A program made the translations under genes and the position numbers. A stretch of DNA of 64,000 nucleotides, taken from positions 153,452,001 through 153,516,000 of the forward strand of contig CM059431.1 of NCBI GenBank assembly GCA_030390025.1. Reading direction: 5' to 3'. Below the pieces are notes generated by a model. That model searched no databases and was not told the DNA's origin. It saw only the letters and a program-made list of their open reading frames with translations. This document shows positions 1 through 55,794 of this stretch, one piece after another; within the stretch, counting starts at the first letter, position 1, and the number at the start of each line of letters is the position of its first letter. Origin of the DNA: Squalus acanthias (taxonomy: Eukaryota).

Positions 1-590
1 CGGCTTACCACATATTGTGCAGATAGAGCTTAGGTTTACTTGTCCTTGGGGAGCAATGTGTGGTTGCTGGGTTTGGCTTACTGGACCAGTAAGCATTGCC
101 CCACCAGCATTTAGATATGATTGAGCTAGTGCCTGTCGACATTGATTATAATGGATTCTAAGCTGTCTATATTTTTCTTGAAGATTCTGCTCATTTATTT
201 CATCATGAACTTCCACTTCAACCGGAATCCATGTCCCCCGGGAGCTTAGGCAGCTCCTGGTCCTACTTTTCTGCCATGGTTGCCACCACCATGTTTGGCA
301 CCATTCATTAGCCCTCCCAATTGTGCATTTGTGCACGTTATCATTAAGGAATTCAGTGGATTTGGAATATCTGTTTCAATATCCTACTGGATATTCTGTA
401 TCAACTGATTCTGGGGATCAACATCAATCGTGCCATGAGTTCTAACTGCTCCATCGGCTTCACAGTCTCCTATTTCAAAAACTATCACTTGGTTTTGTGA
501 AGGTAAAGGAATAGAATTATTTCCCCTAATAATGCAATCGTTTGAATTTCCTAATAAAAAGTATTGGCCAATTACGACAGGGTTTGCCAT
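1..590 (-). pseudogene. gag: Decayed gag 5' region of an endogenous foamy (spuma)-like retrovirus; runs off the left edge of the window
   Basis: Minus-strand translation from ATG 590, through a TAG at 384-386 and a stop/frameshift near 240-250: ...IIRGNNSIPLPSQNQVIVFEI...DPQNQLIQNIQ*DIETDIPNPLNSLMITCTNAQL...EINEQNLQEKYRQLRIHYNQCRQALAQ...VNLSSICTICGKP. It is colinear with recalled prototype foamy virus Gag blocks ILRDRNIPRNPLHGEVIGLRL, DDDNEPLQRPRYEVIQRAVNPHTMFMISGPLAEL, the coiled coil, and IPIQHIRSVTGEPP. Confidence 0.7.
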
Positions 591-600
591 TTCTTAAGGA

Positions 601-741
601 CCTAATCTCGGTTAGGTTTTAACATGAAATGTATAAGAAATTTCTCGTCCTCAATGGTATATTGAGGGCGTTCTGATTTAAGTTGTACATGGCCTGATCA
701 GGGACTTGCTGTCTCTAGAGACTTAAGTCTGGGTCATATTA
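601..741 (-). promoter_or_regulatory. Putative retroviral leader (dimerisation/packaging region) upstream of gag, truncated by the Penelope-like element
   Basis: Perfect palindromes AGAAATTTCT (636-645), CCTGATCAGG (693-702), GTCTCTAGAGAC (711-722) and AGACTTAAGTCT (719-730), plus hairpin CCTCAAT-ggtat-ATTGAGG (649-667), directly 5' of the gag ATG. Confidence 0.45.
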
Positions 742-798
742 CCACAAAATTGAGAGGTCGCACAACACCAGGTTATAGTCCAACAGTTTTATTTGAAA

Positions 799-836
799 TC
801 ACAAGCTTTCGGAGCTATCGCTCCTTCCTCAGGTGA
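799..836 (-). ncRNA. Minimal type I hammerhead ribozyme in the inverted pLTR
   Basis: Minus strand: UCAC-CUGAGGA-A-GGAGC gaua GCUCC-GAAA-GCUU-GUGA; intact CUGANGA/GAAA core, stems I and II, palindromic AAGCUU in place of stem III. Confidence 0.8.
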
Positions 837-1447
837 AGTAAATTGGATACAGAATCGCCAGAGCATATATAGATGGAAAACAAAGCATGTGTACTTTACA
901 ATTGCAGACCAATAAATTAAATCATCCGGACTATCTGCCGAGGTGTGATAAAGTTAATTAAGTCAGCCAGGAAGGTACCACATCAAAAGACATAGCAAGA
1001 TACAACTGAGACAATGAGGTGTAGTCGCAGGGGTTCTAACGTGTCAAAAGCTGCCGTCTGTATGTAAAACGAAAAGCTTTAAAAAAAATTACTTTTTCAC
1101 CCGGGATCTTGGGTTTATGTCACGATACATGACGTGATCCGGACTCGAGTCGTCGTTGGCTTGTTCACAGATGTGATTCCCAGTAAAAAAGTAAAAATTT
1201 TAAAGTTAATCGTTTTACATACAGACGGCAGCTTTTGGCACGTTAGACCCCATGCGACTCCACCTCATTGTCTCAGTTGTATCTTGCTATGTCTTTGATG
1301 TGGTACCTTCCTGGCTGACCTGATTAACTTTATCACACCTCGGCAGATAAACAGTCAGGATGATTGAATTTATTTGTCTGCAATTGTAAGTTACACATGC
1401 ATTGTTCTCTATCTATATATGCTTTGACGATTCTGTATCTCCTCACT

Positions 1448-1485
1448 TCACCCGACGAAGGAGTTGTAACTCCGAAAGCTTGGGA
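1448..1485 (+). ncRNA. Hammerhead ribozyme motif in the 5' pLTR (core variant, probably impaired)
   Basis: UCAC-CCGACGA-A-GGAGUU gu AACUCC-GAAA-GCUU-GGGA; U4 to C change in the core and one stem I mismatch. Confidence 0.7.
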
Positions 1486-1572
1486 TTTAAAATAAAACTG
1501 TTGGACTATAACCTGGTGTTGTGCGACCTCTCAATTTTGTCCACCCCAGTCCAACACCGGCATCTCCGCATC

Positions 1573-4250
1573 ATGACCACTATCGACACCACAAACTGCC
1601 GGCTCAAAGTGGAGAGAATCGCCAAGAAGATCGCGCATATCGACACCGACATCAAGTATCTACAAAGATGCAAGAAAGCAGACAAGAGCCCGAAAGGACT
1701 ACAGATCACGAACCCACTCAAGTCGACATACAACAGAGACTACGCTGAGAGACTCTGTCGTCGTACCTCTCGCACACTCCTCAACAATCTCGTACACCAG
1801 CTCTACAGCAAAAGCCACAACCTCGAAACCAAGATAGAGTCCATGCTCTCAGCCTGTGCTCAGGACACAGCAGACCAGTTACGAGACACCGCCAAACAGA
1901 CGAGGCAACGGAACTACGCTGCCTACATGCGCATCAAAAACAGGAAGCTTGAGAAACTCGGCATCACCACCAGCAGCAACCAAGCCTCCCCCGGTACCAC
2001 GGCTGCAACCACAGGGAAGTCCATCGTCAATTTGTCCGACCATACCCTTCAACCAGACGAAATCGAAGTTCTCGCCCTAGGGCTCAAGTTCTGCCCAACC
2101 ACCAAAATGGACCCCATCGGTCTCGCGGCAGACACGGAGGAATTCATCAGGAGAATGAGGCTCCGGGAATACTTCCACAAATCCCAAGATGTCAGCAACA
2201 AACCCAATGAGACAATCAATGATCCAGAACAGCAGACAGAGGGACACGCAGTGCAGCAAACGAAGAAAAAAGAGTCAAACTGGACCCCTCCGGAGGGTCG
2301 CTGCCCCAAGCTGGACATGTATGCTCACGCTGTCAGGAGATGCATCAACGCCAGATTCATCAGCCGCACTCACAAGACAGTCCAGAATGTCACCCGAGCA
2401 CAACGCAACGCCATCCACGCTCTCAAGACCAAGCGCAACATTGTCATCAAACCAGCGGACAAAGGAGGAGCCATCGTCATACAGAACAGAATGAACTATT
2501 GTACAGAAGCATACCGACAACTGGACAACCAGGAACACTACAGACAGCTACCCGCAGATCAGACCAAAGAACACACCCGCCAACTCAATAGACTGATCAA
2601 GACCTTCGATCCAGACCTTCAAAACATCCTAGCGCTCTCATCCCACGTACTCCCCGCGTGGGAGACTTCTACTGCCTCCCAAAGATACACAAAGCCAACA
2701 CACCCGGACGTCCTATCGTATCAGGCAACGGAACCCTGTGTGAGAACCTCTCTGGATACGTCGAGGGCATTCTGAAACCCATCGTACAGGGAACCCCCAG
2801 CTTCTGTCGCGACACTACAGACTTCTTACAGAAACTCAGCACCCACGGACCAGTTGAACCAGGAACACTCCTCACCACGATGGACGTATCGGCACTCTAC
2901 ACCAGTATCCCCCACGATGACGGCATCGCTGCGACAGCCTCAGTACTCAACACCAACAACAGCCAATCTCCAGACGCCATCCTACAACTCATCCACTTCA
3001 TCCTTGACCACAATGTCTTCACCTTCGACAACCATTTTTTTACCCAAACACACGGAACAGGCATGGGGACCAAATTCGCACCCCAATACGCCAACATCTT
3101 CATGCACAAGTTCGAGCAAGACTTCTTCACTGCACAGGACCTCCAGCCAACGCTGTACACCAGATACATCGACGACATTTTCTTCCTTTGGACCCATGGC
3201 GAAGGATCACTGAAAAGACTACACGATAACATAAACAAGTTCTATCCCACCATCAAACTCACCATGGACTACTCCTCAGAATCAGTTTCATTCCTGGACA
3301 CACGAATCTCCATCAAAGACGGACACCTCAGCACTTCACTCTACCGCAAGCCCACGGACAACCTCACGATGCTCCACTTCTCCAGCTTCCACCCTAACCA
3401 CGTTGAAGAAGCCATCCCCTATGGACAAGCCCTGCGAATACACCGGATCTGCTCAGACGAGGAGGAACGCGATGGACACCTACGGACGCTGAAAAACGCC
3501 CTCGTAAGAACGGGATATGACGCTCGACTCATCGATCGACAGTTCCGACGGGCCACAGCGAAAAATCGCATAGACCTCCTCAGAAGGCAAACACGGGACA
3601 CAACCAACAGGGTACCCTACGTCGTCCAGTACTTCCTCGGAGCGGAGAAACTACGCCATGTTCTTCGCAGCCTTCAACATATCATCGATGACGACAAACA
3701 CCTCGCTAAGGCCATCCCCACGCCTCCACTACTTGCCTTCAAACAGCCGCCTAACCTCAGAAGTACCATTGTTCGCAGCAAATTACCAAGCTTTCAGGAT
3801 AACAGCGACCACGACACCACAGAACCCTGCATTGGCAAACTCTGCAAGACATGCCAGATCATCAACACAGATACCATCATCACACGTGAGGACACTACCC
3901 ACCAGGTATATGGTACATACTCATGTGACTCGGCCAACGTTGTCTACCTCATACGTTGCAGGAAATAATGCACCGCGGCATGGTACATCGGCGAGACCAT
4001 GCAGACACTGAGACAACGTATGAACGAGCACCGTGCAACAATCGCCAGGCAGGATTGTTACCTCCCAGTCGGGGAACACTTCAGCAGTCAAGGACATTCA
4101 GCCTCGGATCTGCGGGTAAGCGTTCTCCAAGGCGGCCTTAGGAAAACACGACAACGCAAAATCATCGAGCAGAAACTGATAGCCACGTTCCGCACTCATG
4201 AAGACGGTCTCAACCGGGATCTTGGGTTTATGTCACGATACATGACGTGA
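1573..4250 (+). pseudogene. PLE polyprotein (RT + Cys-rich linker + GIY-YIG endonuclease) with two frameshifts
   Basis: ORFs 1402-2775, 2658-3968 and 3999-4250 join. Motifs: IKPADKGGAIVI, PKIHK..PGRPIVS, MDVSALYTSIP, GTGMGTKFAP, RYIDDIF, PCxxxxCxxC, NVVYLIRC..WYIGET, RMNEH, GLN. Frameshifts near 2630 and 3965. Confidence 0.93.
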
Positions 4251-6080
4251 TCCGGACTCGAGTCGTCGTTGGCTTGTTCACAGATGTGATTCCCATGCGA
4301 CTCCACCTCATTGTCTAAGTTGTATCTTGCTATGTCTTTGATGTGTTACCTTCCTGGCTGACCTGATTAACTTTATCACACCTTGGCAGATAAACAGTCA
4401 GGATGATTGAATTTAGTTGTCTGCAATTGTAAGTTACACATGCATTGTTCTCCATCAGGGACACGTTTTAAAGAGTGTGTTTCAGCATGAGGGACGCCTT
4501 TGAAATAGAGAGCATCGCCATCAGGGGCCCCTTAAAAGAGGGAGTATCCCCGTCAGGTATCCCTATTAAAACGTGAGTCTTTCCATAAGGGACCCCTTCA
4601 AAGAATAAGTGTCAATATCAGGGAACCCGTATAATGAGGAAGTTTCACCATCAGTGACCCCTTTTAAAAAGTGAGTCACACGATCAGGAATCAATTTTAA
4701 AAAGAGAGCCTTTCTATCAGTGTCCCTTTTAAAGAGGTAGTCTCACCATCAGGGACCCCTTATAAAGAGAGAGTCGCAACATCAGAGATCCCTTTTAAAG
4801 AGTGAGTCTTTCTAACAGGTAGCCATTTTAAAGAGGGAGTCTCACCATCAGTGACTTTTTTTAAGAGGAAGTCTCAACATCAGGGACCTTTTAACGAGAG
4901 AGTCTCACAATCAGGGATCTCTCTTAAAGATAGTGTCTCACGCTCAGTGACCGTGTTAAAGAGGCAGCCCTTATATCAGGCAGCCTTTTTAAAGAATGAG
5001 TCTCACCATTTGGGTTCCCAGTAAAAGAGTGAGTCTCACCATCAGGGATACCTTTTAAAGAGGGAGTCTTTCTATCAGGGAACCTTTTAAAGAGGCAGAT
5101 TCACTATCAGGGAACCCTTTTAAAGAGGATGTTTCAGCATCAGGGACTCCTATTAGAGAGGAAGTCTCACCATCGGGGAACCCTTTTAAAGAGGAAGTCT
5201 CACTATCAGCGATCCCTTTTAAAGAGGACTTCTCCCCATCAGATACCACTTTTAAATAGATAGTCTCACCATCTGGGGCCCCTTTTAAAGAGGGGGTATC
5301 CCTGTCAGGAACCCCTTTTAATGAGAGAATCGCTCCACCAGGGACCTCTTTTATAAAGAGCGTCTAGCATTCAGGGATCACTTTTAAAGTGAGACTCTCA
5401 CCGTCAGAGACCCTTTTAAAGAGGGAGTCTTTCTATAAGGGAGCCCTTTTAAAGAGTGAGTCTCACCGTCTGTGAAAATTTTAAAGTGAGTCTTTCTATC
5501 AGGGAGCCCTTTTAAAGAGGGAGTCTCACTATCAGAGACCCTTTTAAAGAGGGAGTCTTTCTATCAGGCAGCACTTTTAAAGTAAGACTCTCAACCTCAG
5601 GGAAGCCTTTTAAAGAGGGAGCGTCACAATCAGTAACACCTTTTAAACAGGGAGTTTCACCATCAGGGACCACTTTCAAAGAGAGATAATTTCAGTTAGG
5701 GTCTCCTTTTAAAGTTGGAGTCTTACCCTCGGGGATCCATCTTAAAGAGAGTGTCTTACTATCAGGGACCCATTTTAAAGAGGGCGTCTCCCCATTAGCG
5801 ACACATTTTAAAGAGGCAGTCTCACCATCTGGGACTCCTATTGAAGAGGGAGTCTCACCTCCAGGGACCCCTTTAAAAGAGGAAGTCTCACAATCAGCGA
5901 CCGCTTTTAAAGAGAGAGTCTCCCCATCAGGGACCCCTTTTAAAGAGAGAGACTCGCCATCAGGTCCACTTTTAAAGAGGGAGTATCACCTTCAGGGACC
6001 CGTTTTAATGACAGGATCTCTCCACCAGGGACCCTTTTTAAAGAGGAATTATCTGCATCAGCGAACCATTGTAAAGGGGG

Positions 6081-7534
6081 TGTAAAGGATTGAGACATAT
6101 TTCCGAAAAATACACCACTCTATGAACAGAATTCTGATTTTATTAAAATAGGACAAACTGGGTTTAAAAATCTAAAAGCCTGAATGACACAAAGCTGTAA
6201 ATACAGGCTTCTGAGATAAGATGAGTAACAAACCTGGAAGCACCGTACAAGCTTATGAAATAGGAATTGGTTATTGACAATGAGACAATGGCCTCATTGA
6301 ATCAGAGGATTGTAGTTTCCAAGAAGTCTGCAGTTTGGAACCAATACAATAGCTATACCCAGTTTAACGTGTTATAAACTAACACTTCGAACAGAAACAC
6401 AGAACATTAAAAAAACATGTGTCTTTGTAAAAGAAACATCAAATGAAAGACAGGTAACATAAGTTTGTAATATAACCAATTAAGATGGCTGGTGAAACAA
6501 TCAAGTACTCGATTGAAGTGCTTTGATTTACATATTGTAAAAGGTAAAAACAGAAGACTTGGTAAATATTACATCAATAGATGCATCAAGTAATCACACG
6601 GTTTATGTGTTGAAAAAGGAACACAAGGAGATGCAAAGTCTGGAATTCAAGCAGTTAAAGTAATTTAAGAAATCAACAGGAGACCTTCGTAAGAATGGCA
6701 TTAAATTGATACAACTGACATAACCATTTTGTATGATAACTTTCGAACACCTAAAGATAGAGACAGAATTCTGCAAGTTAGCAGCTGAATTGACAGTAAG
6801 AATAGAAAGAAGTCAACAGAAAGATGACTGGAGATAATTAGCTTACATCAGAAGAAATGTTCAAAGAATATACCACTGCAAAAAAGGGCATAAAATATAG
6901 TGCTTTCAGATAGGAAGTTAGAAGTCGCTGGAAGCAGCAAAGTGATTCTCAACTTCAGAGGCAGTCTCTGTAACTTTTTATCTTTTTGAGTCTCTGGGAT
7001 CAAAATTAACTTTTATTTGAATTTGAAGGATATTCTGGATTATAAATATGTACGAATTTGGAAATGTAACGAAGTTAAGATTTGAGAATAAGGATCTCTG
7101 ATAAGAAATGTAAGTCATTTGATGTTTTAACTTTTAAAGTTGCGATTGAAAGCACCAACGGTTAAGTTTATGCCAGCTCTTTAATAAATCTAAATATTTT
7201 TAGAATTGTCTCACAGAGTACTTCTGTATCAATCTCGAGAACTCAATTTCTGAACGCTTTTTTGTGAGGAGTAGCAGAATTCTGTGGTGTTTTCCGGACC
7301 CTCATAATATCCAGATCTTTACAGTCTATTTAAACTTATTAAAAGTGCTATCTGGAGGACGGTAACGTCTTCAAGTCGGTCCTTTCCTTTAGGGAGAGAT
7401 AGTTTGAACCTGTAGACACAATTAAGCATCTCTCGGATTCGGCTATCTCTAACTGTAGTTGAAGGTGAACGTCTGGGCATTACGCCTTATCTGGGGTAGC
7501 CCGAAAAGTGCTACGACTGGTAATTATCGCTTCA
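6081..7534 (+). mobile_element. Solo LTR (1454 bp), foamy-like ERV candidate
   Basis: AT-rich insert in the satellite with TG...CA ends (TGTAAAGGAT...TTATCGCTTCA), TATA-like CATAAAA at 6889, donor-like GTAACT at 6970 and AATAAA at 7183. Homologous at both ends to 22660-28760 (minus). No perfect TSD (GGGG vs AGGG). Confidence 0.85.
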
Positions 7535-14859: not shown

Positions 14860-16007
14860 TCAGGGACCCCTTTTAAAGAGGGTGTCTTTCTATCAGCGAG
14901 TCATTTTAACGTGAGTCTTACCATCAAAGACCCCTATTAATGAGTGAGTCTCACCATCAGAGATTCCTTAAAAGAGGGAGTGCCTCCATCAGGGAACCCA
15001 TTTAAAGAAAGAGTGTCTCTATCAGGGACTACTTTTAAAGAGTAGGTTTCTCCAACACGGACCCCTTTTAAATAGAGTGTCTCCCCATCAGGATCCCTTT
15101 TAAAGAGGGAGTCTCGGCAACAGGGACCCCTTTTGAAGAGGATGTATCAGCATCAGGTACTCCGATTAAAGAGGGTGTGTCTCTATCATGGACCGTTTTA
15201 AAAGAGGGTGTCACCCCATCAGGACCCCTTTGAAAAGGGAAGTCTGCCAAACAGGACCCCTTTTAAAGAGAGAACCTCAGCATTGGGGACAGCTTTTAAA
15301 GAGGGAGTCTCAGCATCAGGGGTTCCTTTTAAAACGGGAGTCTCACCATCAGGGATCCCTTTTAAAGAGTGAGTGTCATCGTCAGAGACCCTTTTAAAGA
15401 GGGAGTCTTTCTATCAGTGCGCCCTTTTAAAGAGAGTGTCTCACCATCAGGTATCCCTTTGAAAGAGAGGGACTCCACATCAGAGACCCGTTTAAAGAGA
15501 GAATTTCCCCATTAGGGATTCCTTTTAAAGAAGTCGCAACATCAGGGATCCCTTTTAAAGAGGGAGTCTTTCTATTAGGGAGTCCTTTTAAAGAGGGAGT
15601 CTCGTCATCAGAGACCCAATTTAAAGGGAGACTCGCACCATCAGGGACACCTTTTAAAGAGAAGGTCTCAACAAAAGGGATCCCTTTTAAAGAGGGTGTC
15701 TCAACATCAGGGACCCCTTTTAAAGGAAAGCCTCACATTTAGGGGACCCACATAAATAGGGAGTCTCACCATCAGGGACTACTTTTAAATGAGAGGGTAT
15801 CCCCATTAGTATCACTTTTAAAGAGGAAGCCTCCCCATCAGAGACCACTTTTAAAGAGAGAGTCTTTCCACCAGGGACCCCTTTTAAAGAGGGAGACTTA
15901 CAATCGGACACCTTTTCACGAGGGAGTCTCGCCATCAGGGACCCCTTTTAAAGAGGGAGTCTCCCCAACAGTGACAACTCTTAAAGAGGGTGTCTCACCA
16001 TCAGGGA

Positions 16008-17890
16008 ATGATGTGGAGATGCCGGCGTTGGACTGGGGTGGACAAAAATGAGAAGTCGCACAACACCAGGTTATAGTCCAACAGATTTATTTAATTTTAC
16101 AAGCTTTCGAAGCAGTTCGCTCCTTCTTCAGGTAAGTTAGCAATGAGAGAATCTCCCAGAATTCACAATTTAAACCCAGACAAAATCTATTCACATTATT
16201 CCCTACAACAAAGAGCACAGCCAAGACAATGAGATGTGTCCCAGGAGGTCCAACGTGTCAAACCACCTGCTGGCTGCATATCCTGTCAATTTGTGTTCTT
16301 GTGTTAGTCTTTTAAAAAAAAAACACCTGGGAAGACCGGCCATGATGTCAAGTCACGTTCTGTATCGTGACATGAACCCGATATCGCGATTGAGGCCATC
16401 CTCATGAGTGCAGAACTTGGCTATCAGTTTCTGCTCTATGATTTTGCGCTGTCGTGTATCTCGAAGGCCGCCTTGGAGAACGCTTACCCACAGATCCAAG
16501 GCTGAATGCCCCTGGCTGCTGAAGTGTTCCCCGACTGGAATGCAACCCTCCTGCCTGGCGATTGTTGCGCGGTGTCCGTTCATACGTTGTCTCAGTGTCT
16601 GCATGGTCTCGCCGATGTACCATGCTCTGGAGCATCCGTTACTGCAACGTATCAGGTAGACAACGTTGGCCGAGTCACATGAGTATGTACCGTGTATCTG
16701 GTGGGTAGTGTCCTCACGTGTAATGATGGTATCTGTGTCCATGATTTGGCATGTCTTGCAGAGGTTGCCGTGGCAGGGTTGTGTGGTGTCTTGGTTGCTG
16801 TTCTCCTGAAAGATGGGTAATCTGCTGCGAACGATGGTACTTTTGAGGTTAGGCGGCTGATTGAAGGCGAGTAGTGGAGGCGTGGGGATGGCCTTAGCAA
16901 AGTTGTTCGTCGTCATCGATGATATGTTGAAGGCTGCGAAGAACATGGCGTAGTTATTCCGCTCCGGGGAAGTACTGGACGACGTAGGGTACTCTGTTGG
17001 TTGTGTCCCGTGTTCGTCTTCTGAGGAGGTCTATGCGGTTTTTCGCTGTGGCCCGTCGGAACTGTCGATCGACGAGTCGAGCGTCATATCCCGTTCTTAC
17101 GAGGGCATCTTTCAGTGTCCATAGGTGTCGATCGCGTTCCTCCTCGTCTGAGCAGATCCTGTGTATTCGCAGGGCTTGTCCATAGGGGATGGCTTCTTTA
17201 ACGTGGTTAGGGTGGAAGCTGGAGAAGTGGAGCATCGTGAGGTTGTCCGTGGGCTTGCGGTAGAGTGAAGTGCTGAGGCGTCCGTCTTTGATGGAGATTC
17301 GTGTGTCCAAGAATGAAACCGATTCTGAGGAGTAGTCCATGGTGAGTTTGATGGTGGGATGGAACCTGTTGATGCTATCGTGTAGTCCTTTCAGTGATCC
17401 TTCGCCGTGGGTCCAAAGGAAGAAGATGTCGTCGATGTGTCTGGTGCACAGCGTTGGTTGGAGGTCCTGTGCAGCGAAGAAGTCTTGCTCGAACTTGTGC
17501 ATGAAGATGTTGGCGTATTGGGGTGCGAATTTGGTCCCCATGGCTGTTCCTTGTGTTTGGGTGAAAAAATGGTTGTCGAAGGTGAAGACATTGTGGTCAA
17601 GGATGAAGCGGATGAGTTGTAGGATGGCGTCCGGAGATTGGCTGTTGTTGGTGTTGAGTACTGAGGCTGTCGCAGCGATGCCGTCATTGTGGGGGATATT
17701 GGTGTAGAGTGCCGATACGTCCATTGTGACGAGGAGTGTTCCTGGTTCAACTGGTCCATGGGTGCTGAGTTTCTGCAAGAAGTCTGTAGTGTCGCGACAG
17801 AAGCTGGGGGTTCCCTGTACGATGGGTTTCAGGATGCCCTCGACGTACCCAGAGAGGTTCTCACACAGGGTTCCGTTGCCTGATACGATA
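16008..17890 (-). mobile_element. 5'-truncated Penelope-like element (same family, different 3' UTR variant) with complete 3' pLTR
   Basis: ORFs 16954-17778 (RT) and 16353-16946 (linker + GIY-YIG) are closely similar to 2658-4250. Flanked on both sides by ACCATCAGGGAA (15997-16008 and 17890-17901), a possible TSD. Confidence 0.93.
16097..16135 (-). ncRNA. Minimal type I hammerhead ribozyme in the 3' pLTR
   Basis: Minus strand: UUAC-CUGAAGA-A-GGAGC gaacu GCUUC-GAAA-GCUU-GUAA; core intact, stem I covaries with the copy at 799-836. Confidence 0.8.
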
Positions 17891-20800
17891 CCATCAGGGA
17901 AGGCATTTAAAGATGAGAGTCTTTCTATCAGGGATCAGTTTTAAAGAAGGAATCTCACCATCAGGGATCCCTTTTAAATAGAAAGTCACCATATCAGGGA
18001 CCCCTTTTAAAGAGGGAGTCTCACCATCAGTGACCCCTTTTAAAGAGGGAGTCTCAACAACAGGTACCCCTTTTAAAGACGGAATCTCAGCATCAGGAAC
18101 CCCTTTTAAAGAGAGAGTATTTCTATCAGGGAGTCCTTTTAAAGAAGGAGTCTCACCATCAGAGACCCAATTTAAACAGACAGTCGCACCATCAGGGACC
18201 CCTTTTAAAGAGGGTCTATCCCCTTCAAGGACTCATTTTAATGATAGGGTATCTCCACCTGGTACCTCTTTTAATGAGGGAGACTCACTATCAGGGGCCC
18301 CTTTTAAAGAGGGAGTCTCACCTTCAGGGATCCATTTTAAAGAGGGAGACTTTCTCTCGGGGAGACCTTTTAAAGAGTGAGTCTCACCATCAGGGATCCC
18401 TTTAAAGATGTAGTCTTAGCATGTGGTATCCAGTTTAAAGATTGAGTCTCACCATCAGGGATCTCTTTTAAAGAGACAGATTCTCCCCATTAAGGGATCC
18501 CTTTCAAAGTGGGTGTCTCACCATCAAATACCCTTTTAAACAGGAAGTCTCACCATCAGGGTCTCCTATTAAAGAGTGAAATTCACCAACAGGGACACTT
18601 TTAAAGAGGAATCTTTCTATCAGGGATCCATTTTAAAGAGGCTGTCTCATCATTAGAACCCCTTTTAAAGGGGGTGTCTCACCAACAGGGACAGCTTTTA
18701 TAGAGGGTGTCTCACCATCCGGGAACATTTTAAAGAGGCAGTCTCCCCATGAGGGACCCCTTTTAAAGAGAGCGTTTCGCCATCAGGTTCCCTTTTTAAA
18801 GTGATAGTCTTTCTATCAGGGACCCCTTTTAAAGAGGGAGTCTCAGCATCAGGGAACCCATTTAAAGAGAGAATATCCCCATTAAAAGAAGAAGGCTCAC
18901 CATCTGGGATCACTTTTAAAGAGGGAGTCTTTTCAGCAGGGAGACGATTTAAAGCGGGAGTCTCACCACCACAGACCCAATTTAAAGAGAGAGTCGCACC
19001 ATCAGGGCGCCTTTTAAAGAGGGCGTATCACCTTCAGGTGCCCATTTTAATTAGAGAGTCTTTCCACCAGGGACCCGTTTTAAAGAGGGAGTGGCACCAT
19101 CACGGACCCCTTTTATAGAGGGAGTCTCCACAACAGGGACTCCTTTTAAAGAGAGAGTTTTGCCATCAGTGTCCCCTTTTAAAGAGGGAGTCTTTCTATC
19201 AGGGAGCACTTTTCATGTGATTCTTACCATCAGGGACCCCTTTTAAAGTGGGAGTGTCTCAATCAGGGTCACTTTTAAATAGGATGTCTCCCCATCAGGG
19301 ACCCCTTTTGAGGAGGGTGTCTAACCATCAGGAGCCCCTTTTATAGAGGGAGACTCACCGTCAGGGACCCCTTTTAAAGTGGAAGTCTCACCATCAGGGA
19401 CCCCTTTTAGAGAGAGAGTCTCACCATCAGGGTTCCCTTTTTAAGAGGGTTATTTCTATCAGGGAGCCCTTTTAAAGCAAATGTAACCATCAGGGATCCC
19501 TTTTAAAGAGCTTATCTTTCTATCAGGGAGCCCTTTTAAAGATGGAGTCTCACGATCAGAGATTCTTTTAAAGAGGAACCCTTTTAAAAACAGTCTTAAC
19601 ATCTTGGACCCCTTTTAATGATTGAGTCTCACCATCAGTATCCCTGATAAAGAGAGATTCTCACACTCTGGGACACATTTGAAAGAGGGTGTCTCCCCAT
19701 CAGGGACCGCTTTTAAAGAAGGAGTGTTTCCAGCAGGGAGACGATTTAAAGCGTGAGTCTCATCACCACAGACCCAATTTAAAGAGAGAGTCGCACCATC
19801 AGTTACCGCTTTTTAAAGAAAGAGAGTCTCCATCAGTGACACCTTTTAAAAAGGGTGTATCTTCATCAGGGACACCTTTTAAAGAGGGTGTCTCCCATCA
19901 GGATCCCTTTTGAATAGGGAGTCTCCCCAAAAGGGACACCTTTTAAAGAGGGAGACTCACCATCAGGGATCCCTTTTAAATAGAGAGTCTCAACAACAGG
20001 GACCCCTTTTAAAGAGGGAGTCTTTCTATCAGGGTCCCCTTTTAAAGATACTCTTACCATCCGGGAACAGTTTTAAAGAGTGAGTCTCATCATCAGGGAT
20101 CTCTTTTAAAGAAGAAGTCTCACCATCAGGGTAAACTTTTAAAGAGGGTATCTCACCTCCAGAGACCCAATTTAAAGAGAGAGTTGCACCATCAGGGACC
20201 CCTTTTTAAGATAGAGTATCCCCTTCACGGACCCATTTTAATGAGAGAGTCTCTCCACCAGGGAACTTTAACGTGGAAGTCTCACCATCAGGGACCTCTT
20301 TTAAAGAGGGAGTCTCACCCAAAGGGACCCCTTTTAAAGAGTGAGTCTCACCATCAGGGATTGTTTTAAAGAGGGAGGCTTTCTATCAGGGAGCTATTTT
20401 AAAGAGAGCCTTACCATCAGGGTTCCCTTTTATTGAAGGAGTCTTTCTATCAGGGAGCCCTTTTAAAGAGGATGTCTCACAATCAGAGACCCTTTTAAAG
20501 ATGGAGTATTTCTCTCAGGGAAACCTTTTAAAGAGAGTCTTACTATCAGGGACACTTTCTAAAGAGAGAGTCTCACCATCAGAGACCCTTTTAAAAAGGG
20601 AACCATCAGGGTCTCCTTTTAAAGAGTGAGTCTCACCATGATGGACCCTTTTAAAGAGGGTTTATTTCTTTGAAGGACGCTTTTAAAGTGAGAGTCTCCC
20701 ATGAGGTATCTCTTTTAAAGATGCTCACCATCAGGGAGCACTTTTCAAGAGGGAGTCCTTCAATCAGAGAGTCAGTTTAAAGAGGGAATTTCACCATCAG

Positions 20801-23566
20801 AGACATTTTAAAGAGGGTGTCTCACCATCAGGGAGCCCTTTTAAACGAGATTGTTTCCCCATTAGGGAACCCTATTAAAGAATGAGTCTTTCTATCAGAG
20901 ACCCTTTTAAAGAGGGATTCTTTCTCTCAGGGAGCCCTTTTAAAGAGAGTCTTACCATCAGGGACCCCTTTAAAGAGGGAGTCTCACACTCAGGGACCCC
21001 TTTAAATGAGGGTGTCTCGTAATCAGGGACCCATTTTAAAGAGGGAGTCTCAACATCAGGAACCCCTTTTAAAAAGAGAGAATCTAACCTTGAGGGATCC
21101 TTTTCAAATAGGGAGTCTCACCATCAGAGATCCTTTCAGAGAGTGAGACTCACCATCAGGGACCCCTTGTAAAGAGGGATTCTTTCTATCAGGGAGTGCT
21201 TTTAAATTGGGAGTCTCAACATCAGAGACACTTTTAAAGAGGGAGTCTCACCATCAGGGACTCCTTATATAGAGGGAGCCTCAGCATCAGGGTCCCCTTT
21301 TAAAGATGTTGTCTCATCATCAGAGACCCAATTTAAAGACACAGTCGCACCATCAGGGACCCCTTTTAAAGTGGGTCTATCCCTTTCATGGACACATTTT
21401 AATGAGAAAGTATCTCAACCAGGGACACCTTTTAAAGAGGGTGTCTCACCATCAGGGACTATATTTAAAGAGCGAGTCTCACCATCAGGGATCACTTTTA
21501 CAGATGGAGTCTCATCATCAGGGCTCCATTTAAAGAGGGAGCCTTTCTCTCAGGGAGCCCTTTTAAAGAGGGAGTTTCAGCATGAGGGATCCCCTTTTTA
21601 AGAGTGAGTCATAGCATCTGGGTCCCTTTTAAAGATTGAGTCTCACCATCAGGGATCACTTTTAAAGAGTTGAGTCTTTCTATCCGGGAGTCCTTTTAAA
21701 GAGGGAGTCTCACCATCAGAGACTCCTTTTAAAGAGAGAGAATCTCCCCATTAGGGATCAATTTCAAAGAGGGAGTCTCACCGGCAGAGACACTTTTAAA
21801 GAGGCTGTGTCATCATCAGGGTCTCCTTTTAAAGAGTGAGACTCACCATCAGGGACCCCTTGTAAGGAGGGAGTCTTTATATCAGGGACCCCTTTTAAAG
21901 AGGGAGTCTCAGCATCAGGGACCCTTTTAAGGGGGAGTCTTTCTCTCAGAGAGCCCTTTGAAAGATGGATTATTTCTATCAGGGAGCTACATTAAAGTGA
22001 GCCTTACCATCAGGGATCCCTTTTAAAGAGGGAGTCTCACAATCAGAGACCCTTTTAAAGAGGGAGTCTTTCTCTCAGTGAGGCATTTTAAAGAGGGAGT
22101 CTCACCATCAGGGCCCACTTTTAAAGAGAGAGAATCTCCCCATTAGGGATCCCTTTCAAAGAGGGAGTCTCACCGGCAGAGACCCTTTTCAAGAGAGTGA
22201 GTCATCATCGGGGTCTCCTTTTAAAGAGTGAGACTCACCATCAGGGACCCCTTGTAAAGCGGGAGTCTTTCTATCAGGGACCCCTTTTAAAGAGGGAGTC
22301 TCAAAATCAGGGACCCCTTTTAAAGAGAGAATATCCCCATTAGGGATCCCTTTTAAAAACAATGTCGCAGCATCTTTGACACAATTTAAAGTGGGTGGAT
22401 GCCCCTCAGGGACTCATTATAACTTTACAGTCTCTCCACCAGCGACCCTTTTTATAGAGGGAGTCTCACCATCAGGGAGCCCTTTTAAAGTGTGAGTCTC
22501 ACCATCAGGAATCCCTTTTGACGATGGAGTTTCACCATATAAGGTTCCATTTTAAAGCGTGAGTCTTAGCAGCTGGGATCCCTTTTAAAGAGGGAGTCTC
22601 ATCATCAGAGATCCTTTTAAAGACGGAGTCTATCTCTCAGGGAGCCCTTTTAAAGATAATGAAGTGATAATTACAAGTCCCAGCCCTTTTGGACTACCGC
22701 AGATCAGGCGTATTCCCCAGACGTTTACCTTCAACTAAAGTTTGCGGTAGCCGGTTCCTATAGACGCTTAATTGGGTCTAAAGGTCAGGCTACCTTTTCC
22801 TAAAGGAAAGAAACGGTCTAAAGTTGTAACCGTCCTCCAGATAGTACTTTTAAAATGTTTAACTAGACTGAAACCTTCCGGATATTATGAGGGTCCGGAA
22901 TACCCCTCAGAATTCTACCAGTCCTTTGATTGCACAGAAATTGAGTTCGCAAGATGATACAGTATTGTTCTTTGAGACAATTTTAACAATATATAGATTT
23001 ATTGACGAAACGACATTTAGATTACATATATTATGGCAATCACAACTTTAATCGTTCAAAATACAAATAGCTTACATTTCTTATCAGAGATCCTTATTCT
23101 CAAAACTTAACTTCGTTACATTTCCACATTTCTACTTATTTCTTAATCCAGAATATCCACCAAAATCAAATACCTTGATTACCCGAGTCTCAAATGTTGT
23201 AAACTTACAGAGAATGTCTGTGAAGTTGAGAAACGCTTTTCGTCCCAGTGATTTCTGAATTTTCTGTTTGAAAAGATCTATTTTTATATCTATTTTGGGT
23301 GGTTTATCCTTTGCAGTTTTCCTGATGATGTAAGCTTTATTGTATAAAGTTATGTCTTTGCTGACTTTGTTCTATTCTTTATTGATATCTCTGTTGAATG
23401 CTTTCTGTCTGCACTCTCAATTTAGATATTGCATGCATAATTATGTCTGTAGCATAGAGGTTTCAAAAACCGTCATATAACCAAGAACAGCAATGGTTTC
23501 TGTTTGACACAATTCTTATCAAAGTCTTTCTACTGATTTTATAATACTACTTTAACTGGTTATTAT

Positions 23567-23879
23567 CACAGAGGCGGCGGACCTGGGTGGAGCGGCTGCG
23601 GCGAGGCGGAGGACTTAAGAGGCGGCGGCGACCAGGTCGGCCCACAGAGGCGGCGGACCTGGGTGGAGCGGCTGCGGCGAGGCGGAGGACTTAAGAGGCG
23701 GCGGCGACCAGGTAGGCCCACAGAGGCGGCGGACCTGGGTGGAGCGGCTGCGGCGAGGCGGAGGACTTATGAGGCGGCGGCGACCAGGTAGGCCCACAGA
23801 GGCGGCGGACCTGGGTGGAGCGGCTGCGGCGAGGCGGAGGACTTAAGAGGCGGCGGAGACCAGGTAGGCCCACAGAGGC
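23567..23879 (+). repeat. 76-bp GC-rich tandem monomers (4 full + partial) at the CR1 5' end
   Basis: CACAGAGGC starts at 23567, 23643, 23719, 23795 and 23871; units nearly identical. Confidence 0.95.
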
Positions 23880-24075
23880 TTTTAAAGTGCGGGACGCAGT
23901 GGTTGCTGGGTAGGTGATTAATTTTTACCTGTATATAAGTTGGGCGGTTCCTAAACCCGAGACACTACACTTGTAGTGTCCCCCACCCTTCCTCCTCCTC
24001 TAACCTAAAGGAGGTGAGTGACTATCAGGTAAGCTCTTTTTTGTTCTAGTTTAATCTGCAAGTTAGCTGGAGAGG

Positions 24076-25002
24076 ATGGCAGGGGAGGCAGTGAAATGTT
24101 CCTCCTGCAGAATGTTTGAGGTGAGAGACGCCGTAGGTGTCCCTGCTGATTACACCTGTGGGAAGTGCACCCATCTCCAGCTTCTCGAAAACCGTGTTAG
24201 GGAACTGGAGCTGGAGCTGGATGAACTTCGGATCATTCGGGAGGCAGAGGAGGTCATAGATAGAAGCTTCAGGGATGTAATTACTCCAAAGCATGTAGAT
24301 AGATGGGTGACGGTGAGAGGGGCTAGGAGGAAGCAGTCAGTGCAGGGATCCTCTGTGGTCGTTCCCCTCAGTAACAGGTATACCGCTTTGAATACTGTTG
24401 AGGGGGACGACTTACCAGTGGTAAGCCACGGTGAGCGGATCTCCGGCGCTGGGTCGGTCCCTGTGGCTCAGAAGGGAAGGGGGGAGAGCAGGAGAGCAAT
24501 AGTTATTGGGGACTCAATAGTCAGAGGGACAGATAGGAGGTTCTGTGGCAGCAAAAGAGACTCACGGATGGTATGTTGCCTCCCGGGTGCCAGGGTCCGT
24601 GACGTCTCGGACCGTGTTTTCAGAATCCTCAAAGGGGAAGGGGAACAATCACAAGTCGTGGTACACATCGGTACCAACGACATAGGTAGGAGAAGGGACG
24701 GGGATTTAAAACAGGAATTTAGGGAGCTAGGTTGGAAGCTGAGAGCCAGTACAAACCATGTTGTAATTTCTGGTTTTTTGCCGGTGCCACGTGCTAGCGA
24801 GTTGAGGAACAGGGAGAGAGTGCAGATAAACACGTGGCTGCAGGGATGGTGTAGGGGGGAGGGTTTCAGTTATGTGGATAATTGGAGCACATTCTGGGGA
24901 AGGTGGGACCTGTACAAACAGGACGGTTTGCACCTGAACCAGAGGGGCACCAATATCCTGGGAGGGAAATTTGCTACGGCTCTTCGGGGGGGTTTAAACT
25001 AA
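24076..25002 (+). CDS. CR1 ORF1p: zinc finger/leucine zipper + SGNH esterase domain (intact, 308 aa)
   Basis: CSSCRM..CGKC, LELELDEL coiled coil, IGDSIVR, CLPGARV, HIGTND, DGLHLN. Confidence 0.93.
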   Translation: MAGEAVKCSSCRMFEVRDAVGVPADYTCGKCTHLQLLENRVRELELELDELRIIREAEEVIDRSFRDVITPKHVDRWVTVRGARRKQSVQGSSVVVPLSNRYTALNTVEGDDLPVVSHGERISGAGSVPVAQKGRGESRRAIVIGDSIVRGTDRRFCGSKRDSRMVCCLPGARVRDVSDRVFRILKGEGEQSQVVVHIGTNDIGRRRDGDLKQEFRELGWKLRASTNHVVISGFLPVPRASELRNRERVQINTWLQGWCRGEGFSYVDNWSTFWGRWDLYKQDGLHLNQRGTNILGGKFATALRGGLN

Positions 25003-27894
25003 TTTTTCAGGGGGATGGGAAAAAGGGCTGTAGTCCACGAGCCAGTGGTGAGTGTAGGGAGGTACTGAGGAGGGTATCAAGGTCGCAGGAATGTACCGGC
25101 AGACAGGAAGATGGCTTGAAGTGTGTCTACTTCAATGCAAGGAGCATCCGGAAAAAGGTAGGAGAACTTGGAGCGTGGATTGGTACTTGGGACTATGATG
25201 TGGTGGCCATTACGGAGACATGGTTAGAACAGGGACAGGAATGGTTGTTGGAAGTTCCGGGGTATAGATGTTTCAGTAAGAGTAGGGAAGTTGGTAAGAA
25301 AGGTGGAGGAGGAGCATTGTTAATCAAGGGTATTTTAACAGCGGCAGAAAGGCAGTTCGAGGGGGATCTGCCGTCTGAGGTAATATGGGCTGAAGTTAGA
25401 AATAGGAAAGGAGCGGTCACGTTGTTAGGAGTTTTCTACAGGCCCCCAAATAGTAGATGTGGAGGAAGAAATTGCAAAGCAGATTATGAATAGGTGTGGA
25501 GGTCACAGAGTAGTTGTCATGGGTGACTTCAACTTTCCAAATATTGATTGGAACCTTTATAGGTCAAACAGTTCGGATGGGATAGTTTTTGCACAGTGTG
25601 TGCAGGAGGGTTTCCTGACACAATATGTGGATAGGCCGACAAGAGGTGGGGCCACGTTGGATTTGGTACTGGGTAATGAACCGGGCCAAGTGTTTGATTT
25701 GTATGTGGGAGAGCACTTTGGAGATAGTGACCACAATTCGGTAACTTTCACTATTGCAATGGAGAGGCATAGGGCCATACGGCAGGGCAGGGTTTATAAT
25801 TGGGGGAGTGGTAATTATGATGCGATTAGGCAAGAATTAGGGAGTATAAGATGGGAACAGAAACTATGAGGGAAAGGCACAAACGAAAAGTGGAGCTTTT
25901 TCATGGTGCAATTACTGCGTGTCCTTGATAGGTATGTCCCTGTCAGGCAGGGAGGAAATGGCCGAGTGAGAGAACCATGGTTCACAAAAGAGGTTGAATG
26001 TCTAGTCAAGAGGAAAAAGGAAGCGTATGTAAGGATGAGAAAATAAGGTTCAGTTGGGTCGATTGAGGGGTACAAGGTAGCAAGGAATGAGCTAAAAAAA
26101 GAGCTTAGGAGAGCTAGGAGGGGGCATGAGAAGTCCTTGGCGGGTCGGATCAAGAAAAACCCCAAGGCTTTTTACTCTTATGTGAGAAATAAAAGAATGA
26201 CCAGGGTGAGGGTAGGGCCGGTCAAGGACAGTAGTGGGAACTTGTGCATGGAGTCAGAAGAGATAGGAGAGGTGATGAATATATACTTTTCGTCAGTGTT
26301 CACCGAGGAGAGGGGCCATGTTCTTGAGGATGAGAGTGTGATAAAGGTGGATAGGCTGGAGGTTGTAGATGTTCTGAGGGAAGATGTTTTAGCAATTTTG
26401 AAGAACCTGAGGGTCGATAAGTCCCCTGGGCCAGATGGGATATATCCTAGGATTCTTTGGGAGGCAAGGGAGGAGATTGCAGAGCATCTGGCTTTGATCT
26501 TTGGGTCCTCACTGTCCACGGGGATGGTGCCAGAGCACTGGAGAGTGGCGACTGTTGTTCCTCTCTTCAAGAAAGGAAATAGGAATGACCCTGGTAATTA
26601 TAGGCCGGTTAGTCTTACTTCGGTGGTCGGTAAGATAATGGAAAAGGTCCTGAGGGATAGGATTTATGACCATTTGGAAAGGGGCAACGTAATCAGGGAT
26701 AGTCAACACGGATTCGTGAAGGGTAAGTCTTGCCTAACAAATTTGATTGAATTCTTTGAGGAGGTAACTAAGTGTGTAGATAAAGGTAGAGCAGTTGATG
26801 TCGTATACATGGATTTTAGTAAGGCGTTTGATAAGGTTCCCCATGGTCGTCTCATGAAGAAAGTAAGGAGTTGTGGGATAGAGGGAAATTTGGCCGATTG
26901 GATAAGTAACTGGCTATCTCATAGAAGGCAGAGGGTGGTGGTGGATGGAACATTTTCGGACTGGAGACCAGTTACCAGCGGTGTGCCACAGGGGTCGGTG
27001 CTGGGTCCTCTGCTGTTTGTGATTTTTATCAATGACTTGGAGGAGGGGACTGAAGGGTGGATCAGTAACTTTGCTGATGACACCAAGATTGGTGGAGTAG
27101 TGGATGAGGTGGAGGGCAGTTGTAGGCTGCAAAGAGACATTGATAGGATGCAGAGCTGGGCCGAAAAATGGCAGATGGAATTTAACCCTGATAAGTGCGA
27201 GGTGATTCATTTTGGTAGGGCAAATTTGAATAAGGATTACAGGGTCAACGGCAGGGTTCTGAGGAACGTGGAGGAGCAGAGGGATCTGGGGGTTCATATC
27301 CACAGATCTCTGAAGGTTGCCACTCAAGTGGATAGAGCAGTAAAGAAGGCCTATGGTGTGTTGGCGTTTATTAACAGAGGGTTTGAGTTTAAGAACCGTG
27401 AGGTTATGCTGCAACTGTACAGGACCTTGGTGAGACCACATTTGGAATATTGTGTGCAGTTCTGGTCACCTCACTATAGGAAGGACGTGGAAGCATTGGA
27501 AAGAGTGCAAAGGAGATTTACCAGGATGCTGCCTGGTTTGGGGGGGAGGTCTTATGAGGAAAGATTGAGGGAGTTGGGGCTTTTCTCTTTAGAGCGGAGG
27601 AGGATGAGAGGCGACTTAATAGAGGTTTATAAGATGATGAGGGGGATAGATAGAGTGGATGTTCAGAGACTATTTCCTCTGGTAGAGGCAGCTGTTACAA
27701 GGGGGCATAACTATAAGGTGCATGGGGTGAGATATAGAAGGGATGTCCGAGGTAGATTCATTACTCAGAGAGTGGTTGGGGTGTGGAATGGACTGCCTGC
27801 TGTGATAGTGGAGTCGGACACTTTAGGAACTTTCAAGCGGTTATTGGATAAGCACATGGAGCACACCAGAGTGATAGGGAGTGTGATAGCTTGA
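25003..27894 (+). pseudogene. CR1 ORF2p (APE endonuclease + RT) with one frameshift and two nonsense codons
   Basis: [61 protein letters not shown]. Frameshift near 25455; in-frame stops at 25867-25869 and about 26044. Confidence 0.93.
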
Positions 27895-35371: not shown

Positions 35372-35752
35372 GCTGAAACAACCCTATTTGAAAGGGGTTC
35401 TGATGATGAGACTCCCTCTTTAAAAGGGGTCCTCGATGTCGAGAGTCTCTCTATAAAAGGCGTCCCTGATGGGGGAGACGCACTCTTTGATAAGAGACTT
35501 TGATGCTGAAACACCCTCTTTAAAATGTGTCCCAGATGGTGAGAATCCCTCTTAAAAGGGGTCCGTAATGGGGAGACTCTCTTTAAAAAGGCTCTATGAT
35601 AGAAAGACGCCCTCTTTAAAAGGGGTCCCTAATAGAAAGATTCCCTCTTTAAAAGGGTCTCTGATTGTGAGACTCCCTCTTTAAAAGGGATCCCTAATGG
35701 GGAGATTCTGTCATTAAAATATGTCCCTGATGGTGAAACTCCCACTTAAAAA
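35372..35752 (-). repeat. Inverted block of satellite (~11 units), copy 1
   Basis: Units read CCCTGATGGTGAGACTCCCTCTTTAAAAGGGG, the reverse complement of the consensus. Confidence 0.95.
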
Positions 35753-36015
35753 GGAGTCTCACAATCAGGACCCCTTTTAAAGAGGGTGTATCTCCGTCAG
35801 GGAAGCTTTTTAATGAGAGAGTCTCTCCACCAGGGACCCCTTTGAAAGAGGGAGTCTCACCATCAGAGACACTTTTAAAGAGGAATTCCCACCATCAGGG
35901 ACCCCTTTTAAAGAGAGAGTCTCTATCAGGGACCCCTTTTAAAGCGGGTGTGTCACCATCAGGGATCCGTTTTAAAGAGGGAGGCTCAACATCAGCGATC
36001 ACTTTTAAAGATAGT

Positions 36016-40108: not shown

Positions 40109-40482
40109 GCTGAAATAACCCTATTTGAAAGGGGATACTGATGAGGAGACACCCTCTTTAAAAGGGGTCATTGATGTTGAGAGTCTCTCTTTAAAAGGCT
40201 TCCCTGATGGGGGAGACTCCCTCTTTGATACGAGACTTTGAAGCTGAAACACCCTCTTTAAAATGTGTCCAGATGGTGAGATTCCCTCTTAAAAGCGGTC
40301 CACAATGGGGAGACTCTCTTTAAAATGATAGAAAGACGCCCTCTTCAAAAGGGGTCCCTAATAGAAAGATTCCCACTTTAAAAGGGTCTCTGATTGTGAG
40401 AATCCCTCTTTACAAGTGATCACTAATGGGGAGATTCTCTGATTAAAAGGTGTCCCTGATGGTGAAACTCCCTCTTTAAAAG
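40109..40482 (-). repeat. Inverted block of satellite, copy 2
   Basis: Same junctions (GAGCTGAAA.AACCCTATTTGAAAGGGG) and the same order of variants as 35372-35752. Confidence 0.95.
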
Positions 40483-54922: not shown

Positions 54923-55270
54923 AGATCCTGCACTATTTCCACCTTTACGTCCCTCAGCAACCCTCATACATCTCATCCGGACCGCGGAAATGTTCTACTT
55001 TACTGTGGTCCAAAACGTGCTGGATTGAAATGGGTTAACTGAAGCTGTTTGTTCAGTGACTGCAATTAATGTCAGTCTCTCCGGCTTATCTGAAGCAGTT
55101 TGTTCAGTGACTGGAATTAATATCATTCTCCATGGACCCTAATTGCATCAGTGCAGGGTTTCCATCTTTTATTAATAAGGGACTAATTTCAATGTGTTAT
55201 CCCATCGTGTCAGTGAGAGCATCTCCTCCGGCACTAACAGTGATCAGTGCGCTGCTCAACAAAGAGTGAG

Positions 55271-55396
55271 TCAGAATCTGAGAACAGTAGATTGGAATGT
55301 TACAACACTCGGTCAGAATCTGAGAACACTAGATTGGAATGCTGCAACAATGGATCAGAATCTGAGATCAGTAGATTGGAATGTTACAACAATGGG
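55271..55396 (+). repeat. 3 x 42-bp tandem repeat overlapping the GPCR start
   Basis: TCAGAATCTGAGA.CA.TAGATTGGAATG.T.CAACA at 55271, 55313 and 55355. Confidence 0.9.
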
Positions 55397-55530
55397 CAAG
55401 AGTTCATCCTCGGCGTTTGAAATATTTACTCTCTACTTTGATTATATGTCATTCATAAATAAGATCCATTACGCAATTCTGATTATGCAATGCATTTACT
55501 ATCCCATCCTTGCTGCTGTTGGTGTTGCTG
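55350..55530 (+). CDS. Probable first coding exon of a GPR139/GPR142-like class A GPCR (N-terminus + start of TM1)
   Basis: MDQNLRSVDWNVTTMGKS...IHYAILIMQCIYYPILAAVGVA followed by a consensus phase-1 donor G|GTAAGT at 55531; N-glycosylation sequon NVT. Alternative start ATG at 55392. No exon 2 recognised in the window. Confidence 0.7.
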
Positions 55531-55794
55531 GTAAGTCTCTCTATCAAGCTATTAATTTTATAATCCATGATTAACTGCACTAAAGTTCTTGCCTTTTACA
55601 TTCCCCTCCTTGTTGCGGTTGTTGTTCCTGGTAAGTCTCTGTATCCAGCTATTAACTTTGCAAAGCTTTGCATACTGTATTACTATTCTCGGAAGTTACC
55701 CTCTCATCTGTGCTGCTGTTGGTGTTCCTGTTAACTTTCTACATCAGCAATTAGATCTGTACACCACGTCTCACTGTATTACTGTGTTTGTCAT

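Follow-up and report, generated by a model that had tools for sequence, protein, structure and literature searches.

Foamy viruses carry a splice donor in the R region of the LTR ahead of the poly(A) signal, a layout that the available part of one study calls unique to foamy viruses and that has been studied in the mammalian ones (PMC3694450). According to the same text, U1 bound at the R donor of PFV keeps the 5' poly(A) site from being cleaved, while the 3' site is released by a different fold, and suppression was relieved only once 462 nt had been added. The PFV poly(A) signal is placed there at +168 and, with the 114 nt measured here in the foamy record L027, the GT falls near +54. The earlier note on this locus had put the foamy donor at about +51; the figure +51 itself does not occur in the available part of the paper. 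Foamy Pol is made from a spliced message (PMC9143442, available part).

Outside mammals, the closest described systems are the foamy-like endogenous retroviruses (FLERVs). In the available parts of two papers, teleost FLERV LTRs measure 1.37-1.71 kb when whole, with examples of 1498 and 1634 nt, have a long U5 and are flanked by reported 4-bp target duplications (PMC5210030, PMC5512871). The shark and amphibian FLERVs described in part of the literature (CmiFLERV, XtrFLERV and NviFLERV, PMC5512871; ERV-Spuma.0-Sca, PMC10699275) share with the present locus a host group that its CR1, Penelope and SINE-like repeats suggest. The donor-before-poly(A) layout was not found described for fish elements in the material at hand, where the word "splice" is absent from PMC5210030, the supplements of PMC5512871 and PMC3386198; other supplements and subscription papers may describe these LTRs. 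Because sharks are known to carry foamy-like ERVs and solo LTRs are familiar, the locus as an object is ordinary, and the point of interest here is the regulatory layout. A paper on endogenous foamy viruses of cartilaginous fish reportedly exists as well.

The window (the whole stretch of DNA analysed, 64 kb) contains two copies of one LTR, and their parts are as follows.

6081 to 7534, plus strand: LTR copy 1, 1454 nt, TGT...TTCA, internal region absent on both sides
6889 to 6896, plus strand: TATA-like box of copy 1, first base unlike copy 2 and all contig depth
6950 to 6965, plus strand: two adjacent 8-mers in common with the AciFLERV LTR at a near-equal TATA offset (by eye); 5' arm of a predicted stem
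6967 to 6975, plus strand: candidate major splice donor of copy 1, GT at 6970, +5 base deviating from copy 2 and the family
7060 to 7114, plus strand: near-invariant block, 54 of 55 positions identical in both copies; 3' arm of the predicted stem; two weaker GTAA sites
7183 to 7188, plus strand: AATAAA poly(A) signal, kept in copy 2
7340 to 7534, plus strand: distal U5, modestly structured (z about -1.9 and -2.0; matched in stability by 4 and 1 of 100 shuffles)
22660 to 23561, minus strand: 3' arm of LTR copy 2, ~902 nt, with TATAAAA at 23288, TCT|GTAAGT with its GT at 23208, AATAAA at 23003 and the end TTCA
23562 to 27977, plus strand: CR1-type LINE within copy 2, ~4.4 kb (RVT_1, E 2e-37; GDSL esterase, E 5e-13)
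27978 to 28760, minus strand: 5' arm (U3) of LTR copy 2, ~783 nt, with an internal duplication of ~175 nt

The stretch from 6081 to 7534 is a genuine LTR, the single end-repeat of a high-copy retroelement. It has TG...CA ends, a TATA box followed by a poly(A) signal, and dispersed copies. Copy 2, in minus-strand orientation, begins at 28760, ends at 22660 and is split by the CR1 LINE; its two arms sum to ~1.69 kb, with the end of the 5' arm set by eye. The two copies are identical at 465/631 positions (74%) in the 5' arm and 662/835 (79%) in the 3' arm, and the excess length of copy 2 is the ~175-nt duplication in U3. This duplication lies at 28045-28294, and its halves are 72% alike. A long ORF was searched for in U3 and none was found, and an Rfam search returned no match.

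In copy 1 the distance from the TATA-like box to the GT is 81 nt (6889 to 6970), in copy 2 it is 80 nt (23288 to 23208). The AATAAA follows the GT after 213 nt and 205 nt, and the LTR ends 351 nt and 343 nt behind the AATAAA, in copies 1 and 2, respectively. All the figures of the earlier note stood on remeasurement: the TATA-to-GT spacing of 80-81 nt, the GT-to-AATAAA spacing (205-213 nt measured), the lengths of 1.45 and 1.69 kb (1454 and ~1690 nt measured), and the start of copy 2 at 28760 with the 15 letters quoted. With a start site ~30 nt behind the TATA box, R would be ~285 nt and U5 ~330 nt. The note had put the donor about 50 nt into R; this figure depends on the assumption that transcription starts ~30 nt behind the TATA box. 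As motif and position, a splice-donor motif in R that lies 78-87 nt behind a TATA box and before the poly(A) signal was found. In dinucleotide shuffles (2000 per copy), a GTRAG arose by chance 78-87 nt behind the TATA box in 2.6% and 1.6%, and a GTAAGT in 0.35% and 0.25%. The copy 2 donor matches U1 at 7/11 positions, and foamy donors match at 6-8/11. Both the TATA box (CATAAAA) and the donor (GTAACT) of copy 1 are degenerate, and under strict motifs it is copy 2 and the family, not copy 1 itself, that show the layout.

The family was then followed in sequencing-run contigs. Contigs of four runs were placed on the LTR at 85% likeness: two DNA runs of organism A, which come from two studies, and two guessed RNA runs (organisms A and D). 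The run with the best match may be the source sample itself. The contig pieces placed per run numbered 3838, 2288, 274 and 327. Summed depth, which is not a copy number, was up to ~400,000 in U5 compared to ~45 at the left junction of copy 1. These data show that the LTR family is high-copy and present beyond one species label. At the donor +5 base, the depth agreeing with copy 2 was 6281/6429, 10901/10915, 78/78 and 27.5/27.5 in the four runs, and at the first TATA base (6889) the depth was unlike copy 1 in 853/853 and 1985/1985. Copy 1 departs from 98-100% of the depth at both positions in all four runs, and the depth has the copy 2 state. Copy 1 is a decayed copy. Its second GTAAGT (7110) is private, as 10185/10224 of the depth differs at 7115, and therefore the +80 site is the family's best donor motif. 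These comparisons draw on 40 of 180 contig differences from copy 1. None of the four listed contig joints starts at the candidate donor (assembled contigs, with two of the four runs guessed to be RNA), and among the loose ends listed, 24 of ~404, none lies at the LTR end. Separately, a 639-nt contig of run X14 (record 8, guessed RNA) starts in U5 and runs 550 nt past the LTR end, a stretch in which the PBS and leader could lie.

For comparison with mammalian foamy viruses, viral contigs were scanned for Lys primer sites, which gave 32 loci; the 16 with Pfam Gag_spuma_N served as the foamy set (L002-L027). In the control panel, L014 was removed because it has no LTR, L029 and L030 are one contig, and Gypsy and BEL LTRs are not included. 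The TATA-to-GT distance is 78-87 nt in 16/16 of the foamy set, which is so by construction since the range was defined from the same 16. The same layout was found in 0/6 non-foamy retroviral LTRs with a TATA box, whose TATA-to-signal distance is 17-24 nt, and in 0/50 TATA boxes in non-satellite DNA of the window. A donor-like motif is present in one of nine cap-starting non-foamy records, the lentivirus-like L008, with GTAAG at +46 (46-51) and a poly(A) signal at +84.

The window LTR resembles the mammalian foamy LTRs in the donor motif in R before the AATAAA, 78-87 nt behind the TATA box, in the TGT start and in a length within 1.06-1.76 kb. The earlier note had used the unusual length and the TGTG start as clues. 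The lengths of 1454 and ~1690 nt do fall inside the foamy range of 1059-1760 nt and beside the FLERV values of 1498 and 1634 nt, but long LTRs are not exclusive to foamy viruses; the start of copy 2 was confirmed, but TGTG is not diagnostic, for it also begins L011, a record without a foamy Gag match. Several differences were seen. The GT-to-AATAAA distance in mammalian foamy viruses is 47-143 nt, in contrast to 205-213 nt here, and their AATAAA lies 152-185 nt from the LTR end, in contrast to 343-351 nt here, so that R and U5 here have about twice the mammalian length. Mammalian foamy donors have G at -1 in 16/16 and their LTRs end in ACA; here the base is T and the end is TCA. No significant DNA similarity was found between the window LTR and the 16 foamy LTRs. 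The narrow mammalian traits (R of ~190 nt, U5 of ~155 nt, a G|GT donor and an ACA end) are thus missing from the window LTR, and this excludes the mammalian clade but not the FLERVs, because AliFLERV too ends in TTTCA and has a long U5 (available part of the source).

The best match among published elements, all of them compared through partial sources, is AciFLERV/AcERV of the Midas cichlid (PMC5512871, PMC5210030). It shares an LTR of ~1.5 kb, a long R and U5, and a GT 83 nt behind TATAAAA. In its 1498-nt LTR (PMC5512871 supplement, read by eye), TATAAAA lies at ~662, the GT at ~745 (+83) and AATAAA at ~1012. Two short motifs also occur in the same order and place as in the window LTR: AciFLERV has CAACTTCA and then GAGGCAGT just before its GT, as the window does at 6950-6965. 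Across four FLERV genomes as printed, CAACTTCA occurs once, exactly ahead of the GT in AciFLERV; a line break interrupts its second copy, in the 3' LTR. Shuffling gave an 8+8 match no more than 15 nt off the diagonal in 1/5000 cases (~1e-3 after six comparisons), and 0/16 mammalian LTRs had one; a single 8-mer alone arises in 1506/5000 shuffles. The second shared 8-mer, GAGGCAGT, is present in copy 1 only and not in copy 2. Another AciFLERV stretch agrees with window 7071-7086 at 15/17 columns (by eye). On the other hand, the AciFLERV candidate donor is weak (GTAAC) and unannotated by its authors in the part available, and the similarity to the window LTR that was read from its printed sequence consists of short motifs.

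The remaining elements match less well. AliFLERV has the TTTCA end and long U5, but no GT falls between +78 and +87, and behind its PBS lies a strong donor (by eye). In the newt NviFLERV LTR, U5 measures ~320 nt and a donor-like site precedes the AATAAA; in NviFLERV-1 this site lies ~240 nt before the AATAAA, with no TATA 80 nt upstream, and the LTR is 960 nt. The layout therefore fits one of three non-mammalian FLERV LTRs compared from these sources (AciFLERV; not AliFLERV or NviFLERV-1). The supplements of the catshark paper (PMC10699275), whose examined parts list coordinates and not sequences, were searched for three motifs of the window and gave no match. We consider it likely that the window LTR was left by a FLERV. 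Our main reading, to which we give a probability of roughly 0.7, is that it is a lone FLERV LTR of a high-copy family, whose conserved GTAAG 80 nt behind the TATA box is the predicted major splice donor.

The earlier note had further assigned the LTRs to the virus whose gag lies at one edge of the window. The features there are as follows.

1 to 590, minus strand: broken ORF, weakly like the N-terminus of foamy Gag, with one in-frame stop and one frame break; leaves the window
591 to 762, minus strand: leader above the ORF, with four 10-12-nt palindromes, lacking a PBS and truncated by a Penelope element

The ORF is a candidate foamy-like gag, likely but weakly supported by its sequence. It aligned with foamy Gag N-termini in hhalign with P 0.0041 and a probability of 8%, colinear over 67 columns, and its pieces were beaten by 8/2000 and 41/2000 shuffles. 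It ranked first among 1278 chunks of the window with a non-significant E of 9.4, and a single-sequence structure model reached pLDDT 35. No relevant match was found in Pfam, PDB sequences, three homologue searches, the ESM Atlas or viral contigs, and a library of 1.84 billion returned only two repetitive bacterial proteins, again with no relevant match. In the leader, three or more such palindromes arose in 1/2000 shuffles. The palindrome at 711-722 resembles the foamy leader palindrome except for one symmetric pair of changes, and 16/16 foamy leaders hold one; the foamy palindrome acts in dimerisation (available part of PMC5874298). A PBS-like string near 690-710 on the plus strand was rejected, being on the wrong strand for the ORF and partly satellite core.

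The note's claim was supported in one half. A foamy-like origin of the LTRs agrees with the spacing, the family conservation, the AciFLERV motif and the length, but the link to the ORF is conjectural. Copy 1, in the other orientation, is 5.5 kb away from the ORF and copy 2 is 22 kb away, and the Penelope element interrupts the leader before a PBS or LTR is reached. U5-to-leader pairing, used as a linkage test, was equalled by 28 and 21 of 40 shuffles, and the controls also fail. The chance that the LTRs and the ORF come from the same virus is slightly under even. Nearly as strong is the explanation that the LTRs are foamy-like and belong to another family than the ORF, the satellite merely collecting insertions. 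The opposite strands of the ORF and copy 1, with Penelope and satellite sequence between them, and the 21-26% difference between the two copies, which may be two subfamilies, favour this; the LTRs and the ORF are nevertheless both old and decayed within the same array, and both LTRs have a junction at one satellite phase.

The conserved block in R could bear on how the donor works. Its identity between the two copies has P ~0.03 after correction. RNAalifold on the two window copies predicted a stem that pairs the motif at 6950 with that at 7071, which are both of the stretches shared with AciFLERV. Over its full length, R is no more stable than its shuffles (83 and 53 of 100 as stable for the two copies). 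Donor accessibility with versus without the upstream U3 went from 0.41 to 0.03 in copy 1 and was steady at 0.13 in copy 2, and foamy controls showed no consistent switch, so the comparison carries no information on a 5'/3' switch. The block also holds two ATG-TAA start-stop pairs, which could be minimal upstream ORFs or only part of the stem; foamy leaders contain short ORFs (PMC5035957, available part).

Under the main reading, the conserved GTAAG would bind U1 snRNP and, in the 5' LTR, restrain an AATAAA that lies 205-213 nt further downstream, as in PFV, and the stem between the motif ahead of the donor and the 7060-7114 block may shorten the distance from donor to signal. By analogy, the most likely mode for the family would be PFV-like poly(A) control with a longer R. 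Judged from the motif, the candidate +80 donor is probably used, by a slim balance. That U1 suppresses the 5' poly(A) site is a more tentative proposal, at somewhat less than even odds, and the modelled stem as a bridge between donor and signal is doubtful.

Another possible explanation is that the LTR is foamy-like and that its major donor sits behind the PBS, with 5' poly(A) control exerted by RNA structure or a weak site. The T at -1, where 16/16 foamy donors have G, would fit this, as would a donor-to-signal distance beyond the mammalian range, the two additional GTAA sites inside the most conserved block, and the strong leader donor of AliFLERV in the available source. Such a donor would leave unexplained that GTAAGT is kept in ~98-100% of the depth in four runs, at a position with a chance of ~0.3%. 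The 7/11 U1 matches of copy 2 also lie inside the foamy range of 6-8, and the 462 nt needed before PFV suppression was lost (PMC3694450, available part) speak against such a donor as well. On balance we regard a donor behind the PBS as unlikely.

If the donor in R acts as in the main reading, a fixed 80-nt TATA-donor spacing in cartilaginous fish would date the layout deep in vertebrate history, foamy-like solo LTRs could be recognized without genes, and the locus would offer a natural test of the reach of U1 suppression (205-213 nt versus 47-143 nt). A broader proposal, which we hold to be speculative and rather unlikely, is that silencing of the 5' poly(A) site by an R donor and U1 is ancestral to all jawed-vertebrate foamy-like viruses, the shark element keeping the TATA distance, the cichlid motifs and the bridging stem.

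It is improbable that the LTR belongs to a non-foamy element (Gypsy, BEL, snakehead-like, epsilon-like or another class III ERV) in which the spacing is convergent or due to chance. In favour of this, no internal region was seen, TG...CA ends, TATA and AATAAA are general features, and the panel leaves Gypsy and BEL LTRs outside. The TGTG start recurs in L011, and XtERV-S, a class III non-foamy frog ERV with a TGT start, has a splice donor in its LTR (PMC8278194, available part). That donor, however, lies at the poly(A) signal, ~290 nt behind the TATA box, in an LTR that ends in ACA. The 0/6 result for non-foamy LTRs, with their TATA-to-signal distances of 17-24 nt, and the AciFLERV motifs at the same place argue for a FLERV instead. 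Exact-motif scans of viral and metagenome collections gave 0, 0 and 3 stretches, with no true LTR copy among them; none of the three stretches has more than 22 nt in common with the window, and all were rejected as chance.

Within the 64-kb window, no PBS, paired LTRs, internal region or splice joint was seen, and both copies run into satellite. A 33-bp satellite with Penelope and CR1 inserts makes up most of the window; its 402 anchors include 115 exact 33-nt spacings. The repeat labels CR1, Penelope and SINE-like are presumably the set to be expected in a cartilaginous-fish genome. Two satellite features bear on the LTRs.

4455 to 6080, plus strand: 33-bp satellite, left flank of copy 1, which resumes from 7535
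46503 to 46519, minus strand: 17-nt exact remnant of the 3' end of a copy-2-type LTR inside satellite; second copy at 47810-47826

The earlier note had called the LTR "solo". No internal region adjoins either copy, in agreement with this, but the satellite register shifts by 12 nt across copy 1, and neither copy has a perfect flanking duplication, the four-base flanks agreeing at 3/4 (copy 1) and 2/4 (copy 2). The left flank of copy 1 ends at satellite phase 24 and the right flank resumes at phase 3, a 12-nt loss, and a monomer short enough to explain it is absent from the satellite arrays. Copy 2 flanks are in register only if the target monomer was 31 nt, and 16 such spacings are present. 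A lone LTR would stem from LTR-LTR recombination. Because of the 12-nt register loss and the lack of a matching short monomer, copy 1 likely arose by recombination of two satellite insertions, or with a small flanking deletion. That copy 1 is a 3' LTR stranded by an internal deletion, with the left G-run a polypurine-tract remnant, is very improbable: the left junction GGG|TG does equal the PPT:LTR motif that foamy viruses and fish ERVs are reported to have, and the 12-nt shift has no such short monomer behind it, but the left 28 nt score as in-register satellite (25.5 bits versus -26 for the next phase), the satellite unit carries AGGG at that phase, and the satellite is interrupted at that very phase by copy 2 and by an unrelated insert at 36.0 kb.

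Some further observations were made on the window. The satellite is broken at phase 24 at 6080, 22659 and ~36014, by the two oppositely oriented LTRs and by an insert, unrelated to them, that has short inverted ends. The 17-nt LTR-end remnant was duplicated along with satellite, and its copies lie 1307 bp apart. Short inverted segments occur in the plus-strand array at 35472-35763 and 40157-40524, and around copy 2 the array is inverted as well. Two Penelope-type elements (760-4452 and 15975-17912) have opposite orientation and are 95% alike over 990 nt; the first is the one that cuts the gag-like leader. Lastly, a 131-aa frame lies at 55179-55574, and short repeats of its end motif come after it; we take the end of this frame to resemble transmembrane helix 1 of a G-protein-coupled receptor.
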